Assembly (NCBI GenBank): GCA_963836915.1
Contig: CAWILH010000002.1
Span: 19,010-83,009, forward strand
Direction of reading: 5' to 3'
DNA length: 64,000 nt
Origin: an uncultured Cryomorphaceae bacterium
GTDB taxonomy: Bacteria; Bacteroidota; Bacteroidia; Flavobacteriales_D; Cryomorphaceae
Every line of letters starts with the position of its first letter. The first letter of the stretch is position 1. A program made the translations under genes and the position numbers. The notes beneath the pieces are model-generated. The model had not been told where the DNA came from. It worked only from the letters and a program-made list of their open reading frames with translations, and made no database searches. Below, in pieces: positions 1-8,801 of this stretch.

Positions 1-114
1 ATTGACAGAACAAAGGATTTTATTAAACAGATTGACAACGTAGATAACGGACTGAAAAACCTTGAACGGCTGAGAAATTGGATAATCGAAAATGAAAACT
101 TGCTACAACAATGA
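1..114 (+). CDS. C-terminal fragment of a gene truncated by the window edge (last gene of the preceding cassette)
   Basis: Frame 1 is open from base 1 (IDRTKDFIKQ...NENLLQQ) to TGA at 112-114. The stop overlaps the inverse core of the first attC-like hairpin. Confidence 0.6.
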   Translation: MDRTKDFIKQIDNVDNGLKNLERLRNWIIENENLLQQ

Positions 115-235
115 ATAACACAAATTGCGGAATACCTTCCAAAAATGCCATTTTTGAGTACCTTTAAAATTACCTTTTTAACTGATAAATTCGAGTTTCC
201 AAGCCGCAACTTGCGTTATTCGGGACGTTGTGCCT
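102..235 (+). other. attC-like recombination hairpin 1
   Basis: Inverse core GCTACAAC (102-109), 3-nt spacer, arm GAATAACACAAATTGCGG pairing with CCGCAACTTGCGTTATTC, 5-nt spacer, core GTTGTGCCT (227-235). Confidence 0.75.
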
Positions 236-349
236 CATTGTGAAAAGCCGACCGCACAAACAGCACATTTGGTTTTTGCCGATACACAAGCCAACGCTTC
301 AAAAACCAAAAGAGCTGTTTTTTGCCAACGCTTGACGGAATAAAATTTG

Positions 350-357
350 TACCTTTG
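350..357 (+). promoter_or_regulatory. Bacteroidota -7 promoter element
   Basis: TACCTTTG matches TAnnTTTG, 14 nt upstream of the ATG at 372. Confidence 0.6.
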
Positions 358-371
358 CGTTTATTAAAAGT

Positions 372-743
372 ATGACAAGATTTTTATACATAGCATTACT
401 TACTCTAATTGGTTTTATTACGACACCAACAGACACCTATGCTTGTGGGTCAAAATCTGAAAACACAGAAAATACTATCAATAAACAGTCAGATTCCAAA
501 ATGGAAAAAAAAGATTGTTGCGATAAAGAAAAAGGACAATGTGGTAAACACGGAAAAGATTGTGACGGAAACTGCGGTAATCCCGCTTGTCATTGTCCTA
601 CTAATTGCACAAACTTTACAATCCCTTTTTTTGACGGACTTTCCCAAGTTAAAGTAGTCGTTAGAAAACCGAATTTTTACTATCAAGATACCTATTATTC
701 ATCAGGGTTTCTTTCCATTTGGCTACCGCCCAAAATAGGCTAA
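372..743 (+). CDS. Cys-rich exported hypothetical protein, first gene of the heavy-metal cluster
   Basis: N-terminal hydrophobic segment and a central Cys/His-rich tract (DCCDKEKGQCGKHGKDCDGNCGNPACHCPTNC). Confidence 0.7.
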   Translation: MTRFLYIALLTLIGFITTPTDTYACGSKSENTENTINKQSDSKMEKKDCCDKEKGQCGKHGKDCDGNCGNPACHCPTNCTNFTIPFFDGLSQVKVVVRKPNFYYQDTYYSSGFLSIWLPPKIG

Positions 744-834
744 TTTCTTGCCCTGACAGCCATAGGTCTGTCCATACGAGAGCATTACCTTGCTTTCGCA
801 ATCAAATATTTTCAAGGACTTAAAATTTAAAAAA

Positions 835-1698
835 ATGAAATCAATAAAAATATTGATGGCAATTACTGTATTGCTATCGTTCACAGCGTTAAACGCTCAA
901 ATCAAAAACGCTAAAACCGAAAGCGTAAAAATTTACGGTAATTGTGGTATGTGCGAAAGTACCATTGAAAAAGCAGGAAATGTTAAGAAAGTAGCCGAAG
1001 TAGATTGGAATAAAGATACCAAAATGGCTACACTTACTTACGATGCGAGTAAAACCAATCAAGAAGAAATCTTGAAACGTATTGCATTAGCCGGTTATGA
1101 CAGTGACCAATTTCTTGCACCTGATGATGTATATGACAAACTTCCTGGATGTTGTCAATACAACCGAGTAAAAAAATCGAAAATGGCAAAATCAGAAGTT
1201 ATGGAAGACCATTCTATGCACAATCACAATGGAACAAAGGACAAGCCAACAGAAACAAAGCAAGAAGTAAATCAACTGAAATCAGTTTTTGATAACTACT
1301 TTTCTCTAAAAGATGCTTTGGTAAAATCTGACGGAAATTTGGCTTCTACCAAAGCCAAAGAATTACTTGCTTCAATTAAAGCTGTAGAAATGGGGAAACT
1401 CACAACCGAAGAACATATGGTTTGGATGAAAGTAATGAAAGACTTGGCTTTTGATGCCGAACATATCGAAGAAACCAAAGATGCGGGGCATCAGCGTGAC
1501 CATTTCACGAGTTTGTCAAAAAATATGTACGAACTGATAAAGGTTTCCAAATCTGAAACGCCAGTTTACTATCAGTATTGCCCAATGTACAATGACGGCA
1601 AAGGTGCAAATTGGTTGAGTAAAGAAAGTGGAATTAAAAACCCTTACTATGGCTCACAAATGCTCACTTGTGGAAAAACGGTTGAAACAATTGAATAA
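835..1698 (+). CDS. HMA-domain + DUF3347 periplasmic metal-binding protein
   Basis: Signal peptide, GNCGMC metal-binding motif, His-rich linker, and C-terminal YCPM...NPYYG..MLTCG typical of DUF3347. Start set at ATG 835. Confidence 0.85.
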   Translation: MKSIKILMAITVLLSFTALNAQIKNAKTESVKIYGNCGMCESTIEKAGNVKKVAEVDWNKDTKMATLTYDASKTNQEEILKRIALAGYDSDQFLAPDDVYDKLPGCCQYNRVKKSKMAKSEVMEDHSMHNHNGTKDKPTETKQEVNQLKSVFDNYFSLKDALVKSDGNLASTKAKELLASIKAVEMGKLTTEEHMVWMKVMKDLAFDAEHIEETKDAGHQRDHFTSLSKNMYELIKVSKSETPVYYQYCPMYNDGKGANWLSKESGIKNPYYGSQMLTCGKTVETIE

Positions 1699-1719
1699 TA
1701 ACAATAAAAAATTAAGAAA

Positions 1720-2346
1720 ATGAAAAATATCAATTTAAAATTAATGATTGCCTTATTAAGCGGAAGTTTAATTATGGCAAGTTGCGGAAATAATTCCAAA
1801 TCGGAAAACGATTCCCATCAGAATGAAGAAGGAATGGAACACGACCACTCCAATCACGAGCACGGAGGTACAGAAGAAAACAGAAATGTATCTGCCAATA
1901 TCGGGGAAATGAAGGGCGATATTTCTATTGTTTTAAGCGATTATTTTGCTTTGACAGAAAGTCTTGTTCAGGATGATGCAGCTGCTGCAGCAGAATCGTC
2001 TGAAAAGTTAGTGACTTCCTTAAAGGGATTTAAAGGTTCCAGACTTTCAGAAGATGAACAAAAGGAAGTGAATGATATTTTGGAAACTGCCATTGAAAAT
2101 GCAGAACACATTTCCGAAAATGCGGGGGAGATTAGTCATCAACGGGAACATTTGGTTTCTTTAAGCACAGACATTAAAGATTTGATAGCCATTATCGGGA
2201 CTTCTCAAAAATTATATGAAGCTTTCTGTCCAATGGCTAATAATAATAAAGGAGCCATTTGGATAAGCAACAAGGAAGCAATAAGTAATCCATATATGGG
2301 AACTAAAATGCCAACGTGTGGGAAAGTTCAAAATGTTATCAACTAA
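1720..2346 (+). CDS. DUF3347 lipoprotein (metal cluster)
   Basis: Lipobox MASC, His-rich segment, FCPM...NPYMG..MPTCG motif. Confidence 0.85.
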   Translation: MKNINLKLMIALLSGSLIMASCGNNSKSENDSHQNEEGMEHDHSNHEHGGTEENRNVSANIGEMKGDISIVLSDYFALTESLVQDDAAAAAESSEKLVTSLKGFKGSRLSEDEQKEVNDILETAIENAEHISENAGEISHQREHLVSLSTDIKDLIAIIGTSQKLYEAFCPMANNNKGAIWISNKEAISNPYMGTKMPTCGKVQNVIN

Positions 2347-2850
2347 ATGATGAAGTGGTTGAAAAGAATAGCGATTCTTTTGGTGGTTATATTGGTCGGG
2401 GTGCAATTTATCCCGACTGATATTAACCAACAGGATTACATCCCAAAAGCTGACATTCGCTATATTTATGATGTTCCGGGAAACGTAATGAATATTTTGC
2501 AAACTTCCTGTTACGATTGTCATAGCAATAACACCAAGTATCCTTGGTATAGCAATTTGCAACCTATGCGATTGTTAATGGATGGACATATTCGTGAAGG
2601 AAAGGAAGAACTTAACTTCAATGAATTTGGTAATTATTCCCAACGTAAACAAAAAAACAAACTGGACAGAATTTCAAAACAGGTTAAGGCAGATGAAATG
2701 CCCTTGCCTTCATATCTTCTGATGCACAGTAACGCAAAACTTTCTGATGATGATAAACAAAAAATTATTAATTGGGTAGAGACCCGACTTAAACAAAATG
2801 AATTTGATCCCCCCGCAAGTTACCAGAACGTAAATCCATTACGTTGCTGA
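2347..2850 (+). CDS. Heme-binding (cytochrome c-like, Haem_bd) protein; C-terminus extended by IS1595
   Basis: CYDCH heme motif and distal EMP. The native end KQNE-stop is restored if the IS is removed. Confidence 0.85.
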   Translation: MMKWLKRIAILLVVILVGVQFIPTDINQQDYIPKADIRYIYDVPGNVMNILQTSCYDCHSNNTKYPWYSNLQPMRLLMDGHIREGKEELNFNEFGNYSQRKQKNKLDRISKQVKADEMPLPSYLLMHSNAKLSDDDKQKIINWVETRLKQNEFDPPASYQNVNPLRC

Positions 2851-3797
2851 CATCTAGTTTTGAAGAAAAAACAAGATGAATATACTCAGATTTATGGAAG
2901 AGTTTCCAAATAACGCGGCTTGCCAAGCTCATTTCAAGCTTCAACGAGAGCAGGAAGGAGTAAAATGCAAAAGGTGTAAAGGCATGGATCACTATTGGCT
3001 TGCGAGTAAGGATCAATGGGAATGCAAAGCTTGTGCTTTCCGCACCACGCTTAAAAGTGGAAGTATTATGCACGGTTCAAAAGTCGATTTTCATACGTGG
3101 TACACAGCAATGGCGTTTATGACATTCAGTAAGAAGACTATTTCGGCGATGGAGCTTCAGCGCCAGCTGGAGCACCCAAAATACGATACCGTATGGCGAC
3201 TGATGCATAAGATTCGGGATGCAATGGGTCAGCGCGACGCCCTTTACCATTTAGAAGGAGCTGTTGAATTTGACGAAGGGTACTTTGAAAAAGCGACTTC
3301 AGAAAAAATAAAACTTAAGCGGGGCAGGGGTTCACAAAGGCAAATGAATGTAGCCGTGATGGCTGAATCTACACCACTTGAAGACATTGAAACAGGTGAA
3401 AAGGGTAGCCATTGCCGATATTTTAAAATGCAAGTGCTAAATGATCACAAAGCTGATACTGTAACCGAACTTGTTGAAGATAACTTTGATGAGTCTTGCA
3501 TTGTGTTTTCAGATAAAAGCACCAGTTACGTTGATATAGCTGATCATGTAGAGGTGCACGTTACAGAAAAATCTGATAGGCATACCACTAAAACAACATT
3601 GAAATGGGTGCATATCGCAATAAGCAATGCAAAACGAACCTTGCTCGGGGTATTCCATAAGATAAAGGGAAAGTATTTGCAGTCATACTTGAATGAATTC
3701 TGTTACAAGCTGAACCACAGGTACTTTGGAAATAGAGTTTTTGACCGGTTAACGCTCGCAGTGGCTAAAACCTACTGGTAAGATATGGGGGGATCAA
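2804..3797 (+). mobile_element. IS1595-family insertion sequence
   Basis: Terminal IRs TTGATCCCCCC..TTACCAG / CTGGTAA..GGGGGGATCAA. Flanking direct repeat AAAATGAAT at 2795-2803 and 3798-3806. Confidence 0.9.
2876..3781 (+). CDS. IS1595-family transposase
   Basis: N-terminal Zn ribbon (CKRC, CKAC), VEFDEGY, FSDK..SY, YLNEFCY motifs. Confidence 0.92.
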   Translation: MNILRFMEEFPNNAACQAHFKLQREQEGVKCKRCKGMDHYWLASKDQWECKACAFRTTLKSGSIMHGSKVDFHTWYTAMAFMTFSKKTISAMELQRQLEHPKYDTVWRLMHKIRDAMGQRDALYHLEGAVEFDEGYFEKATSEKIKLKRGRGSQRQMNVAVMAESTPLEDIETGEKGSHCRYFKMQVLNDHKADTVTELVEDNFDESCIVFSDKSTSYVDIADHVEVHVTEKSDRHTTKTTLKWVHIAISNAKRTLLGVFHKIKGKYLQSYLNEFCYKLNHRYFGNRVFDRLTLAVAKTYW

Positions 3798-3809
3798 AAA
3801 ATGAATAAA

Positions 3810-4451
3810 ATGAAATATATCCCTGCATTAGGTTACGATTTTTTAACAGCCTACTACGATATGGCAATAAAAATCACTATGCCCGAAAAGAAGTTCAGAA
3901 GGCTTTTGGTCGAAGAAATAAACCCACAAGCAAACGAACAGATTTTAGAGTTTGGTTTTGGTACAGGTCAAAATTTGCTTTTGGTACACAAGGCGAACCC
4001 AAATACAAAATTAGAAGGTTTGGATATTGACCATAAAGTAAAAGCCATTGCCGAGCATAAATTGGCAAAAGATAATATTGAAATCCCATTGCACTTGTAC
4101 GATGGTAATGTTTTGCCTTTTGCCGACAATAGTTTTGAAAAAGTTTACAGTTGCTTGGTCTTTCATCAATTAGATGCTGAAACGAAACTGAATTGCCTTA
4201 AAGAATTGCATCGTGTTATGAAACCCAACGGAAAACTCATTATTGCCGATTGGGGTAAAGCACAAAACAAATTGATGCGATTAACTTTTGGTTTAGTTCA
4301 GTTATTAGACGGTTTCAAAACTACCAATGATAATGTTAAAGGATTGATGCCCAATTTTATTTCAAAGGCAGGTTTTGAAGATGTAGTGGTAACAAACTCT
4401 ATCAATACAGCAATTGGCACATTTTCTTATTTCAACGCAATTAAAAAATGA
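3810..4451 (+). CDS. Class I SAM-dependent methyltransferase
   Basis: ILEFGFGTG motif I and GLDID motif. The ATG at 3801 lies in the IS target duplication, so the native start is 3810. Confidence 0.85.
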   Translation: MKYIPALGYDFLTAYYDMAIKITMPEKKFRRLLVEEINPQANEQILEFGFGTGQNLLLVHKANPNTKLEGLDIDHKVKAIAEHKLAKDNIEIPLHLYDGNVLPFADNSFEKVYSCLVFHQLDAETKLNCLKELHRVMKPNGKLIIADWGKAQNKLMRLTFGLVQLLDGFKTTNDNVKGLMPNFISKAGFEDVVVTNSINTAIGTFSYFNAIKK

Positions 4452-4461
4452 AATTTCTCAA

Positions 4462-6721
4462 ATGGATAATCAAAAAAATATTTTTAAAAAACTGTTGCCG
4501 ATAGTTGTTTTACTATTGGTAACTACAAACATATTCGCCCAAAAAGTGGTGCGATATGACCTTTACGTAAAAGATACCATCGTTAATTTTACAGGAAAAG
4601 AAAAAAGGGCAATTGCCGTAAATGGGCAAATTCCTATGCCAACGCTCACGTTTACCGAAGGCGACACGGCAGAAATTTACGTACATAACCAACTTAAAGA
4701 AGGTACATCCTTGCATTGGCACGGTTTGTATTTGCCTAATAAAGAAGACGGTGTGCCTTACTTAACCCAAATGCCCATTGAACCAAATACAACACACGTT
4801 TATCGTTTTAAAATCATACAAAACGGAACACATTGGTATCATAGCCACAGCGGACTTCAAGAGCAAATAGGAATGTACGGTTCTCTGATTTTGAAAAAAA
4901 GAGAAGACGACCCTTCTTTCAGAAAAGGTATTGACGATTTGCCAACTGTTCCTGTCATTTTAAGCGAATGGACAGACTACAATCCAGATAATGTACACCG
5001 TATGTTACACAATGCATCGGATTGGTTCGCAATTAAAAAAGGAACAACTCAAAGTTATGCTGAAGCCATTAGAGAAGGACATTTCAAAACGAAAGTTACT
5101 AACGAATGGAAACGAATGTTAGCAATGGATGTGAGTGATATTTATTACGATAAGTTTCTTATCAACGGAACATCAGAAAGTCAACTATCACAATTCAAGG
5201 CGGGTGATAAAGTAAGATTGCGAATTTCAAACGGTGGTGCATCGTCCTATTTTTGGCTCACTTATGCAGGTGGAAAAATAACCGTAGTTGCCAATGACGG
5301 AAATGATGTAGAACCTGTGGAAGTGGATAGATTGATTATAGGCGTTTCAGAAACGTATGATGTAATCGTTACAATTCCAGCAGAAAATACGTCTTACGAA
5401 TTTTTGGCTACACCCGAAGACCGCACCAAGTCGGCTTCTATCTATATTGGTTCAGGCATCAAACAGTTGGTAAATCCATTACCAAAATTGAAATATTTTG
5501 AAGGAATGAAGATGATGAACGATATGATGAAAATGAATGGGGATATGAAAGATATGGGTATGAATATGAGCCTGCAACAAATGGATATGAACACAGTAAT
5601 GTATCCTGAAATTACGGGCGAAAAGAAACCTATGAAAATGGATAAAATGCCAGAAATGGATATGGAGAATATTGAACGATTCCAATCACGGTTCAGGAAA
5701 TACGGATATTGTAACCCTCAATTACGCTATGTTGAAATCACCTACAATAACAACGTTGCCAAAAGATGCACCAATCAGGGAATTAAGGTTTGAATTAACA
5801 GGCAATATGAACCGATATGTGTGGAGTATGGACAATAAAGTGCTTGCTGAAACCGATAAAATATTGATTAAAAAAGGAGAAGTTGTAAGAATTACAATAT
5901 ACAATAATTCTATGATGCGACACCCTATGCACTTACACGGTCACGATTTTAGAGTTATCAATGGGCAAGGCGATTATGCACCACTCAAAAACGTATTGGA
6001 TATTATGCCTATGGAAACCAATGTAATTGAATTTGAAGCCAATTTAGAAGGCGATTGGTTTTTTCATTGTCATATTCTCTACCATATGATGGCAGGAATG
6101 AACCGTGTTTTTAGTTATGAAAACCAAGCTCCAAATCCGTTGTTGCCTGACAAAAAATGGGCTTACAAAAAATTACAGCGAGAAAGCAACGCTTTGCATT
6201 TTATGGCACAAAATGACTTTGCAACCAACGGAAATGACGGAATGGCAATGCTGCAAAATGCTCGATGGAGTTTTGGGACAGAATGGCGTTTGGGATATAA
6301 CGACAGACACGGTTACGAGAGTGAAACGCACATTGGTAGATATATTGGAAAAATGCAATGGCTGCTGCCCTTTGTTGGATTTGATTGGCGTTACAGAAAA
6401 TTAGGACATAACGAAGTAGAAACAAACCTATTCGGACAAAAAAATACCAAAGACAACCGTACACAATTCAGTCTTGGTGTTGCCTACACTTTGCCAATGC
6501 TTTTAATTTTGCAAACCGAAATCTATCAAGATGGAAATGTAAGAATTCAATTAAGGAGAGAAGATATACCCATATCAAAAAGGTTTAGAGCCACATTTAT
6601 GGTAAATACTGACAAGGAATATATGGTTGGACTAAATTATATAGCAAGTAAAAATTTTGGATTTAAAACACATTACGATAGTGATATGGGATTTGGTGTA
6701 GGATTGACATTGAATTATTAA
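4462..6721 (+). CDS. Multicopper oxidase with C-terminal CopB-like barrel region; one frameshift near 5670
   Basis: LHWHG, WYHSH, HPMHLHGH and FFHCHILYH copper motifs are split over ORFs 4414-5793 and 5672-6721. Met-rich linker. Confidence 0.9.
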
Positions 6722-6838
6722 AGCCAACTCAGTAGCAATACACATTACCAAGTCGCACAAGGCGACACACAAACCAAAACTTGGCAAAGAGTATGGCTAC
6801 CCCAACGCTGACTGACAAACTGAAAAAAGAAACAACGA

Positions 6839-6851
6839 AGGCACAACATTG
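6839..6851 (+). other. Left part (inverse core) of attC-like site 2, split by IS110
   Basis: AGGCACAAC is the exact reverse complement of GTTGTGCCT at 227-235. It continues after the IS at 8090. Confidence 0.75.
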
Positions 6852-6899
6852 AACTGTGGTAAAATCCAAGAAAATTGGTGACTTTTTAATGTGTTTTTT

Positions 6900-7877
6900 T
6901 TAATTCAATTGCGGTTTTATACTTCTATAATTTTGGTCATAGATCAGTCCGGATTTTGCAATGGCAAATGCTTGTTTCATCAACTTATTTGCTACCGCTA
7001 TTAATGCCAGCTTTTTACACTTCCCTTTGGCCAAGATTCTTTCATAAAGTTCCCTACATGTTTTATTGGATTTACAGGCGTTAAAACTACACATGAACAG
7101 GAGATTTCTGAGCTTTGGGTTGCCCTGTTTGCTGATTCCTGATCTTCCTCTTACACTGCTACCAGATCGTTTTTCAACTGGAGTCATCCCTATGTAACAG
7201 GTAAATTGTTTGGCACTCTCAAACTTTTTGAAACCATCGCTCAGAACGATCATGAACATAGCGGTACTTTTTCCTATTCCTGGAATAGTCTGAAGCCTTG
7301 AGAACAGATCAGCTTCATTTTCTTCAATCAATTTTTTTAACTCTCTTTCCAGTTTCTTGATCTGGGTGGTTAAATCTGAAATAGTTTTTTCCAGAGGCTT
7401 GATCAGTATACTTCTGTGCTTAGCTGATTTGTGCTCCATGGCATGTAATCTGTTCTTGATCATGGTTCTACCCTTTATGAGCAAATCTATATTCTCGCTT
7501 ATTATGCGGCTTTCTTTTACATACTTTGATGAAGGCCTATAAGCTTTAAGCTCATGCTGACGTGCATATTTACATATCATCTCAGCATCGGACTTGTCGG
7601 TCTTGATGCGCCTGAGATTCATTTGAATGAAGCGCTTGATCACAAGCGGATTTACAACTGAAACAAACACTGATTCAGCGTATAGAAAATCTGCCAACTG
7701 GGTGTGGTATACTCCCGTAGCCTCCATAACAAAACAACCCTTTCTGTCTATTTCTTTTAAGAAAGATTTAAAACCTTTTAGATCGTTTGTGAACTGAAGA
7801 TACCTACCTTCTGCATCCATCACATCAAATACATCCTTGGATATGTCTATCCCGTAATAATTACTAAATTTATCCAT
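6900..7877 (-). CDS. IS110-family recombinase/transposase
   Basis: GIDISKD, VMEATG, KTDKSDA (DEDD) motifs; TIPGIG and RSGSS (catalytic Ser region). Start at ATG 7877. Confidence 0.95.
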   Translation of the reverse strand: MDKFSNYYGIDISKDVFDVMDAEGRYLQFTNDLKGFKSFLKEIDRKGCFVMEATGVYHTQLADFLYAESVFVSVVNPLVIKRFIQMNLRRIKTDKSDAEMICKYARQHELKAYRPSSKYVKESRIISENIDLLIKGRTMIKNRLHAMEHKSAKHRSILIKPLEKTISDLTTQIKKLERELKKLIEENEADLFSRLQTIPGIGKSTAMFMIVLSDGFKKFESAKQFTCYIGMTPVEKRSGSSVRGRSGISKQGNPKLRNLLFMCSFNACKSNKTCRELYERILAKGKCKKLALIAVANKLMKQAFAIAKSGLIYDQNYRSIKPQLN

Positions 7878-7894
7878 AATACTTAAGTTTGGAA

Positions 7895-8065
7895 GAACGG
7901 ATCTACTGCTATCCAACAACCTGGAAACAGGCTCTAAAAGGCCTAACGAACTGTTCAGATTAATAGTAGAAAAAGAGAGGGGACTTTCAATGTTGACGGG
8001 TTTAAATCCTCGTGTATAAGCTAGTCTTATTCCTCTCTTTCGTTCTTTTATTTATAGTCGCTAAT
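7895..8065 (-). ncRNA. Putative IS110 bridge RNA (boundaries approximate)
   Basis: Two stem-flanked loops. Stem 7972-7980/8032-8040 encloses segments matching the target (7988-7995, 8013-8019). Stem 7902-7907/7965-7970 encloses segments matching the element ends (7948-7954, 7917-7922). Confidence 0.8.
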
Positions 8066-8086
8066 TTAATGGATTGTAAACTTAGG

Positions 8087-8210
8087 TTGCATATAGCTTA
8101 TGGCGGGATTGTCCTCTATTCGAGATATGATCTTTGAATCAGGATTATCCTGGGATGAAAGTTTTATCTTCGGAAGCCGCCACTGCGCCAAGCGCCAAAA
8201 CGTTAGGCAC
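8087..8210 (+). other. Right part of attC-like site 2
   Basis: 8089-8183 is 82/95 identical to 12651-12745 (manual count). It ends in core GTTAGGCAC (8202-8210); the 3' arm is degenerate. Confidence 0.7.
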
Positions 8211-8218
8211 CATATAGA

Positions 8219-8800
8219 ATGTCAAGATATATCAGTTTAGCATATCAGTTCTTTAATTTAACTCGCGAGACCATTAATGAAATGGAAAAGCAAGGAAATG
8301 ACCTCGATATTTTTTCTGACGGTGAGATGACTGATGATGAGTCTTGGGAGAATTATGAGAATGAAACTAGATGGAGTGATCAAAACATTGGTGTTCCGAC
8401 ATTATTCAATTTCTATCACGGCCTAGAATTGCTGATGAAAGGGTTAATCGAGAGATCGGGGTATCAATTGAAGTCTAATCATAAGCTAACAGAACTCCTT
8501 GCAACAGTAAAAGAAATACCTGAAGTAACCGATAGTTTAATAGAAGCTTTGGAAATACATCTTTATGATGATAATCCATTTTTCGAATTCTTTCAAGAGA
8601 ATGGAGGTAACGTGGACAAGTACTTTGAGCTTCTGAAATATCCTGAATCTAAAAATGGAGAAAAATTCAACTTTCAGTTTATACGTGGACGTGAAAAAGA
8701 AGGATTAAAGAGACTTTCAACAATAAGAGATGCAACAATAAAACTTAAAGAAGAAATTATCCTCATGATTAAAAAAACAAAGACGTTAGGCGCCATTTAA
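8219..8800 (+). CDS. Cassette gene, HEPN-like hypothetical protein
   Basis: FYHGLELLMKG...NHKLTELL...LLKYP pattern resembles HEPN-fold proteins. ATG lies 17 nt after the core G. Confidence 0.5.
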   Translation: MSRYISLAYQFFNLTRETINEMEKQGNDLDIFSDGEMTDDESWENYENETRWSDQNIGVPTLFNFYHGLELLMKGLIERSGYQLKSNHKLTELLATVKEIPEVTDSLIEALEIHLYDDNPFFEFFQENGGNVDKYFELLKYPESKNGEKFNFQFIRGREKEGLKRLSTIRDATIKLKEEIILMIKKTKTLGAI

Positions 8801-8801
8801 A

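Follow-up and report, generated by a model that had tools for sequence, protein, structure and literature searches.

A putatively RNA-guided IS110-group insertion sequence and its probable specialisation on attC-like cassette sites in marine Bacteroidota

Bridge-RNA elements of the IS110 group, such as IS621 (Durrant et al. 2024, PMC11208160; Hiraizumi et al. 2024, PMC11208158; PDB 8WT6), encode a DEDD + Ser recombinase of ~325 aa downstream of a long non-coding left end that carries a two-loop RNA. [quoted passage not shown] In the IS1111 group, too, target choice has been shown to reside in a short element-borne RNA, the seekRNA (Siddiquee et al. 2024, PMC11187229). Here we analyse an IS110-group insertion sequence (IS) from an uncultured Cryomorphaceae bacterium (assembly GCA_963836915.1), situated in a 64,000-nucleotide stretch of contig CAWILH010000002.1 (hereafter the window), where its body occupies 6852-8086 on the minus strand (1,235 bp, or 1,238 bp with one core copy). 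A preliminary description, made from the sequence alone, had proposed that a bridge RNA in its left end is programmed against an attC-like site. We consider it probable that this is an intact, RNA-guided IS110-group element belonging to a family that targets attC-like cassette sites, a reading directly supported by the identity and ends of the element, by covariation within the RNA fold and between guides and flanks, and by a family of target sites with arrays.

The protein encoded by the element matches the Pfam families PF01548 (DEDD_Tnp_IS110) and PF02371 (Transposase_20), and scores 218 bits against a cut-off of 140 with the NCBIfam model NF033542, 'IS110 family RNA-guided transposase'. 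Its closest solved relative is the IS621 recombinase (PDB 8WT6), to which it aligns over the full length (E 1.1e-36), although protein identity is only ~30-35%. Residues D11, E52, D94, D97 and S238-S241 (SGSS) have aligned counterparts in IS621 and do not vary among 43 homologues, and the original assignment to IS110 is borne out by all three comparisons. With its open reading frame (ORF), catalytic residues and all guides and stems kept, the element is intact. Relatives on PLSDB plasmids were all below 42% identity. The protein cluster to which the window copy belongs counts at least four full-length members and two partial ones on the 4.29-Mb contig of the source genome, and the element is thus multi-copy in its genome.

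The ends of the element can be read from its relatives and from an IS-free site. In L001 (85% aa identity) and L003-L007 (71-83%), similarity stops at CCTAAG and at ...CAGTTCAA/T; the left limit in the same relatives is exactly CCTAAGTTT, and the right limit comes after ...CCACAGTT-CAA/CAT. A close relative, organism A (three sequencing runs), carries window positions ~331-6848 at at least 99% identity and continues past 6848 without the IS, as ATGTATATAAAAAA... / ATGTATATAAAAAATAGGCG. This IS-free site ending at 6848 confirms the coordinates first given for the element and rules out a boundary with the core CCT, in which the element would run to ...TGTTGTG^CCT (^ marks a junction or crossover point). 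That boundary had been prompted by the left flank of L001, which lacks CAA, and was rejected because organism A has GGCACAACA without the element and unoccupied sites read ...ACGG^TGTTG. Non-coding sequence extends over 209 nt upstream of the gene (8086-7878) and 48 nt downstream of it, and no terminal inverted repeat is reported between the two ends. Neither GGCACAAC nor the 18-mer flank is repeated within the window; a 14-nt sequence, ACGAAGGCACAACA, also flanks another copy in metagenome X1, where it adjoins unrelated DNA. In unoccupied sites the left arm directly abuts TGTT, so that the 3 nt to the left of the element are target-derived and the 3 nt at its right end element-derived. These two trinucleotides differ in most relatives. 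The duplicated core of the preliminary description is therefore present at this copy, with CAA on both sides, but is not a general, family-wide duplication.

A metagenome scan yielded 80 related loci, to which more contigs were added through look-ups. For the RNA, 29 non-redundant left ends (~48-85% protein identity) were aligned and folded with RNAalifold, which predicted five helices: two stems enclosing internal loop 1, one of them the closing stem, a further stem enclosing internal loop 2, and one hairpin within each of the two loops. The consensus fold comprises 27 pairs with 98% of cells paired, and 18 of the 27 pairs show compensatory change (104 cells), 5 of them among the 10 pairs of helix 1. 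None of 500 shuffles reached these values, and slid partners were paired in only 46-58% of cells. Both guide pairs are split by a small hairpin, as had been described (Table 1). Short GC-rich hairpin insertions are found inside the guide loops of several left ends (L044/L045, L053, L060 and L080), for example CCCGAAGCCTCGGG replacing the right target guide, and GCCAGTGCTGAGCGCAGTCGAAGT or a like sequence in the right donor guide region; such guides may have been inactivated, or may harbour a tiny nested element.

The guides themselves are the second line of evidence. All the guide motifs and the CAA/TTG flanks were found in the sequence as first described. In shuffled left ends (LE), single motifs occur with p = 0.0046 (8-mer), p = 0.014 (7-mer) and p = 0.029 (6-mer), and the three together in the right order were met in 0 of 200,000 shuffles. 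Covariation of guides with insertion sites among homologous copies had been named beforehand as a check, and is indeed pronounced: the left target guide (LTG) agrees with its own 9-nt left flank at a mean of 7.41 of 9 positions (44 distinct pairs), against 5.48 +/- 0.16 for permuted pairs, none of 10,000 permutations reaching the observed mean. LTGs of separate lineages fit their own flanks, among them UAUGCACAG (L031), UAUACCAGU (L008), UUUAUGAGG (L055), UUUAGCCAU (L061), UUAACCG (L015) and GAUAUGCGU (L017). The right target guide (RTG) is almost invariant across the family (CAACA versus TGTTG/A), with variants such as AAACA versus TGTTT in L035 and ..AAUG versus CAT-TGTT in L005/L007. On the donor side, the left donor guide (LDG) of relatives follows its own right end (RE), as ACAG, UCAG, UUAG or AUAG, and the right donor guide (RDG) of L005-L008 is AGGAUG with the core CAT; the RDG was left out of the statistics, its extraction by regular expression being unreliable. 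The 3' trinucleotides of RTG and RDG track the right-end trinucleotide in several subgroups (UUG-CAA, AUG-CAT, UAG-CTA), and the large CTT subgroup has no simple fit to this rule. The last guide position agrees in 48% of cases for LTG and 22% for LDG; being unmatched in both left guides, it differs from IS621. Together, structure covariation and guide/flank covariation across the family uphold the proposed IS621-type layout of target loop followed by donor loop. The element is an IS110-group member with a putative bridge-RNA-type guide, a mechanism that these comparisons support well.

Table 1. Features of the element and its target sites in the window (^ marks a junction or crossover point)
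Feature	Position	Strand	Remarks
Recombinase gene	6900-7877	-	325 aa; DEDD RuvC-like domain and Tnp domain with SGSS serine
Left-end non-coding region with bridge-RNA-like non-coding RNA (ncRNA)	7878-8086	-	structured part ~8041-7903
Closing stem of target-binding module, 5' strand GAAAGAGAGG	8032-8041	-	pairs with 7971-7980
LTG CUUAUACAC	8012-8020	-	loop 1, 5' side, left-flank sense; may reach 8010 (...ACGA)
UUAUACA	8019-8013	-	left target arm, partial fit
Hairpin between target guides	7999-8009	-	helix 3: 3 pairs, 3/3 compensatory
RTG CAACAUUG	7988-7995	-	exact reverse complement of CAA+TGTTG, 8/8
LDG ACAGUUCGU	7946-7954	-	first 7 nt ACAGUUC (7954-7948) = right-end 6857-6851
Hairpin between donor guides	7928-7945	-	helix 5: 5 pairs, 4 compensatory
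RDG AGGUUG	7917-7922	-	reverse complement of CAA+CCT at the RE-LE joint, 6/6
-7 box TAAGTTTA	8077-8084	-	TAnnTTTG-like, Bacteroidota-type; start of LE; putative promoter function
TTG	6867-6869	-	candidate -33 element after end joining
Left junction, element orientation: ...GCTATATG-CAA^CCTAAGTTT	8089-8087 (CAA)	-	
Right junction, element orientation: ...CCACAGTT-CAA^TGTTGTGCC	6851-6849 (CAA)	-	
CAA, core trinucleotide	6849-6851	-	TTG on +; the element's own; complements UUG ends of RTG and RDG
CAA at left junction	8087-8089	-	target-derived position
Inverse-core-like box GGCACAACA of occupied site	6840-6848	+	right target arm in element orientation
Rest of occupied site, degenerate	8090-8211	+	aligns with family left-flank element; ends in GTTAGGC
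Site 1, unoccupied, GCTACAAC...GTTGTGC	102-233	+	predicted crossover between 110 and 111
Third site, GCCTAAC-A-TCA-CCTAAGAAAACATGCGG ... CCGCACGTTTCTTAG-CCATGGC-GTTGTGT	9528-9656	+	read directly and folded
Fourth site, short palindrome ..CAATAAC-TAAGTATTCGTCCC...GGGATGAATATCTTG-TTGACG	~10220-10277	+	after ORF 9653-10210; read directly and folded

The third line of evidence is the target. In ~45 relatives the element lies at the same point of an imperfect palindrome with RYYYAAC...GTTRRRY ends and a length of 65-190 nt; taken together, the attC-like sites measure ~60-190 nt, typically 130-190 nt. At these loci the left flank is palindromic and conserved over ~150 nt (range ~130-190 nt), starting with ..(G)CCTAACG-GTTTTGTGTATGA.. 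and ending in ..AGCAATTAATTATACACGG^, and the right flank starts with TGTT(A/G)GGC/GTGC.... The two site ends are inverted repeats whose sequences vary between sites with their complementarity kept, that is, covarying arms. Read on the ORF-sense strand, a site consists of an RYYYAAC-like box, an arm, a variable centre, the other arm and a GTTRRRY-like box, and the next ORF follows ~10 nt on. The occupied site of the window extends from GCACAAC (6841-6847) to GTTAGGC (8202-8208), with an ATG at 8219 (ORF 8219-8800); on the plus strand the target reads GCACAAC-A^TTG..., and the RYYYAAC-like box is at the ORF-proximal end of the palindrome. The element is thus placed between an inverse-core-type box and the neighbouring arm, and the invariant RTG has the sequence of the box, in agreement with the proposed attC-like inverse core; the shared insertion point of the relatives strengthens that proposal. 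Another reading of the target, in which a conserved small ORF (MYKNN...) would begin there, was dropped once the palindrome and the covarying arms were seen. One right flank, that of L072, has a Nextera adapter (CTGTCTCTTATACACATCT) directly after TGT, an assembly artefact that was disregarded.

Within the window there are four such sites, co-oriented on the plus strand with plus-strand ORFs. Site 1 is matched at 90-248 (E 1e-6) by an nhmmer profile built without window sequences, and its predicted structure is one long hairpin with imperfect pairing (-23.0 kcal/mol for the minus strand, z -4.5). It had originally been singled out as an 11/13 match (106-118) to a 13-mer specified by the guides, the occupied site also matching at 11/13. 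The arithmetic is right; a 13-mer with up to two mismatches is expected 2.06 times in the window, however, so the 106-118 match alone is meaningless, and the 13-mer by itself was rejected as a target finder for performing at chance level. The third site is predicted not to be a target for the left guide of this copy, its arm sequence being different. Most of it (9532-9651) is found at 85-90% identity on two short contigs of metagenome X1, with unrelated DNA on both sides, and hence represents a repeated unit in that community. The fourth site is the weakest of the four. Apart from the end boxes, a second inner complementary pair, as in attC, is present in 102-233, in 9528-9656 and in the family sites, and the occupied site has this arrangement only in part. 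Immediately beyond site 1, and before ORF 372-743, a 21-nt inverted repeat (258-320; 90% complementary, 21-nt loop) may be a terminator or another small palindrome.

Further unoccupied sites were detected with the nhmmer profile in L002, L008, L013, L016, L025, L033, L058 and L064, and all 55 hits, unoccupied sites and short arrays included, are in the element orientation. In L083-L085 and L090-L092, which were outside the profile, a site likewise ends at the left junction. Sites alternate with co-oriented ORFs in L002, L016 and L090 (3, 3 and 2 sites, respectively), forming units of 0.6-2.7 kb. As the profile detects only sequence-similar sites, and misses sites 3 and 4 of the window as well as the 5' half of its occupied site, array lengths are underestimated. 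When single strands were folded, the element-sense strand, antisense to the ORFs, was the more stable in 25 of 30 sites (p 7e-5), an asymmetry that, in these predicted folds, is as expected of attC bottom strands. Within +/-10 kb, L090/L091 have cassette-like units with a Thoeris-like set (ThsB-TIR, SIR2), a PIN-domain protein and an AAA_15/21 ATPase, and L083 has a Gp49/HI1420 toxin-antitoxin pair; gene content of this kind is typical of sedentary integron arrays.

Several results weigh against RNA-guided insertion into attC-like sites. Searches of Rfam, at gathering thresholds and at E<=10, returned no family for the ncRNA (or for the target site), and no other model matched the RNA, which sets it apart from IS621; among the RNA-seq runs searched, none held the element sequence. 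The crossover nucleotides differ in most relatives (donor end CTT versus target CGG/CGT/CAT) and fit the UUG of the RTG through G-U pairs only. Where IS621 has a CT dinucleotide core, we find a C-N-N trinucleotide (CAA in the window), mostly differing between donor and target in relatives, and this 'core' behaves unlike that of IS621. The register of the LTG also varies. L093 and L001, with the same guide as the window copy, pair best 2 nt further on, as TTATACACG-N^TGTTG (left flanks TTTTATACACGT^ and CTATACACCG^), the shifted register scoring 9/11 in L093, 7/11 in L001 and 6/11 in the window, whereas L003-L007, with the flank TTTATACAT^, use the unshifted one. One fixed LTG register for all subgroups, also considered, does not fit. 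The exact 13-mer that the guides were thought to specify is therefore not secure. In addition, the left flank of the window copy matches its own LTG at only 5/9, as the preliminary description had correctly stated, and this, like the shifted 6/11, equals the background of non-cognate guide/flank pairs. Lastly, no integron integrase was found within +/-10 kb of the element in 8 genomic contexts (L083-L092).

The non-cognate left flank bears on the window copy rather than on the family: an RNA-guided cassette-site specialist is what the relatives point to, and the left half-site of this copy does not conform. At the right half-site the fit is perfect (8/8). Of the left part, no more than the final ~50 nt align to the hidden Markov model of the sites (5.5 bits), and the reconstituted site, which in uninterrupted form would read GGCACAACATTGCATATAGC, folds poorly and not as one hairpin (z about -1.1 versus -4.5 for site 1). 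Moreover, the match to organism A breaks off precisely at crossover position 6848 instead of at the GTTRRRY end. The occupied site looks like a hybrid of two sites, and the copy most likely stems from a half-matched insertion or from later recombination between copies; half-matched insertion is documented for IS621 (bioRxiv 10.64898/2026.08.31.748434). Alternatively, the copy could be a dead or trapped relic that arose through copy recombination or deletion, in which case its flanks would be uninformative on the guides. The 5/9 flank, the missing single palindrome, the stop at the crossover and the several copies in the source genome all fit such a history, and we take it as a serious possibility, although we lean against it: the element has its reading frame, catalytic residues, guides and stems, its right half-site is complete, and, half-matched insertion being known for IS621, guided but sloppy insertion explains the same facts.

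A second alternative leaves the RNA-guided IS110 element as it is and reassigns its target. The palindromes might not be integron attC sites, being instead similar to repetitive extragenic palindromes (REP) or bacterial interspersed mosaic elements (BIME), or sites of an unknown recombinase, and the element would then be a REP-type specialist like IS621 or ISPpu10. Besides the lack of a neighbouring integrase in L083-L092, the only tyrosine recombinase gene of the window (11633-12480, minus strand) is unconvincing as an integron integrase. It scores best with the integron-integrase model TIGR02249, at 142 bits against a cut-off of 265, and with IntI4 (2A3V) at E 5e-25, yet it is frameshifted, its IntI-specific region counts 30 aa as compared with 63 in IntI4 and is thus short by ~33 aa, and it lies at the wrong end of the array, directly upstream of, and coupled to, an IS91 transposase. 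Integrons are reported to be rare in Bacteroidetes (PMC9024848), a phylum that is also listed among those carrying integrons (PMC8618304). With no integron integrase near the element, a defective gene in the window and this reported rarity, we speak of attC-like sites and retain a REP-like identity as an alternative. The arrays are also short (2-4 sites), and the 'cassette' between sites 1 and 2 measures 6.6 kb and holds several genes. REP-like palindromes would nonetheless leave much unexplained, namely the RYYYAAC...GTTRRRY-type ends with covarying arms and variable length and centre, the better folding of the strand antisense to the ORFs, the position between co-oriented ORFs in units of 0.6-2.7 kb with the next ORF ~10 nt past GTTRRRY, and the absence of sites from the window's ~50 kb of housekeeping DNA, unlike genome-wide REPs. 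We thus regard a REP-like identity as rather unlikely. That the loop/flank matches stem from DNA-level end features, such as subterminal repeats, that the protein recognises, or reflect a protein preference for hairpin DNA without any guide RNA, is very improbable, for even though none of the RNA-seq runs searched held the element and a protein could read the target, a structured palindrome in its own right, the stems between the guide segments keep their pairing (104 compensatory cells) while the loops carry the specificity, the left guide changes along with flanking DNA outside the element, and the closest solved homologue is RNA-guided with identical loop order and strand rules.

Returning to an RNA-guided element that targets attC-like sites, we infer that the left end would give rise to a transcript of ~170 nt, which would bind the recombinase and guide it. 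Internal loop 1 would read the target, and internal loop 2 would likewise read the joined ends of the element itself (ACAGUUC.. and ..AGGUUG), in each case with the 5' side in left-arm sense and the 3' side complementing the core and right arm, over 6-8 nt as in IS621. The natural target of the family would be one fixed point of attC-like palindromes between co-oriented cassettes in marine Bacteroidota, with the conserved inverse-core box (ORF-sense strand ..CAACA) on one side of it and the neighbouring variable arm on the other. The RTG would be pinned on the conserved box, and the left target guide re-programmed by lineage to follow the variable arm. In Bacteroidetes promoters, TTG is the -33 consensus. 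The flavobacterial sigma-A -7 box is TAnnTTTG (PMC9723704). A promoter of this Bacteroidota type, TTG-N20-TAAGTTTR, may be assembled only when the ends join in a circular intermediate, with the predicted joint ...CCACAGTTCAA^CCTAAGTTT. TTG-N20-TAAGTTT(G/A) is present at the predicted RE-LE joint of 39 of 51 loci, compared with 2 of 51 integrated left junctions; no circle junction was seen in the contigs examined. By analogy, such a junction promoter would parallel that of IS621, split between the two ends, with the difference that its motif is of the -33/-7 type.

How does this element compare with others that use similar sites? Members of the IS1111-attC group (ISPa21, ISKpn4, ISPst6, ISPa25) are also of the DEDD family and insert in one orientation at one end of cassette attC sites. 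These elements, reported by Tetu & Holmes 2008 and Post & Hall 2009, are compared with the present one at the level of their general description. They have their RNA downstream of the gene, carry subterminal inverted repeats, and occur in Proteobacteria with class 1 or Pseudomonas/Xanthomonas integrons, whereas the present element has its RNA upstream and a 3' non-coding part of no more than 48 nt, is hosted by marine Bacteroidota, and uses sites that exceed theirs in length (typically 130-190 nt). Given an RNA upstream of the gene, the element is not a member of the IS1111-attC group, though target choice is alike. REP-targeting IS110 members (IS621, ISPpu10, ISPa11) share site-specific insertion, read by a guide RNA, into repeated intergenic palindromes; IS621 has the E. 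coli REP as its target and the present element an attC-like palindrome. REPs are 20-40 nt long and genome-wide; the attC-like sites exceed them in length, are found at cassette junctions in DNA rich in mobile elements, and share the orientation of the ORFs.

Since bridge RNAs and attC-targeting IS1111 elements are already known, the mechanism is not new; in the literature searched, we found no paper connecting bridge RNAs with attC. An IS110-group lineage, besides the IS1111 group, appears to have specialised on cassette recombination sites, which points to convergent 'safe harbour' use. With more than 60 members, the family is a large natural data set in which one guide is fixed on a conserved box and the other re-programmed to a variable arm, and thus a natural experiment on guide evolution and on tolerance of mismatches and half-matches. 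It also exposes a widespread attC-like cassette-junction family in marine Flavobacteriia and Cytophagia, in a phylum with few integron reports. An element lodged between inverse core and partner arm should put the site out of action, so these elements may freeze cassette arrays. A bolder idea, which we think very improbable, is that these arrays have no working integron integrase and that the IS110 bridge recombinase itself reshuffles their cassettes, or that these are exchanged through recombination between IS110 copies parked on the inverse-core side of every site; a hint in this direction is a 6.5-kb copper-resistance unit common to the window and organism A, whose identity (at least 99%) stops right at the bridge-RNA crossover point 6848, not at the canonical G^TT of the other site end, and another is the hybrid look of the occupied site. 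If true, this would amount to an RNA-guided analogue of integron cassette exchange.

The element lies in a mobile-element-rich metal-resistance island (window 1-15000), with housekeeping genes from ~15.9 kb onwards. The island encodes HMA/DUF3347 proteins, a haem-binding protein, a methyltransferase and a multicopper oxidase, together with transposases of the IS1595, IS110, IS91 and IS4-like DDE (13331-14554) types. The multicopper oxidase (4414-6721) is split into overlapping ORFs, 4414-5793 and 5672-6721, and contigs of organism A show 1-nt deletions and substitutions relative to the window at 5673-5678, implying a frameshift or a sequencing error in one of the two genomes. The IS91-family (Y2 HUH) transposase, on the minus strand, is split into frames at 10501-11433 and 11208-11726, and the frameshifted Xer/IntI-like tyrosine recombinase directly upstream of it (ORFs 11633-12139 and 11947-12480) may be an accessory recombinase of the IS91 element. 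A 1,003-bp stretch at 2795-3797, with an IS1595-family transposase gene (ORF 2876-3781), is the sole piece skipped by the three runs of organism A; 9 bp fit either side of the joint, and the stretch looks like a recent insertion in this genome. Finally, at one of the related loci, L006, positions 309-391, ~900 nt to the left of the IS, come close to the Rfam threshold for group II intron domains V/VI (38.1 bits against a gathering score of 40).

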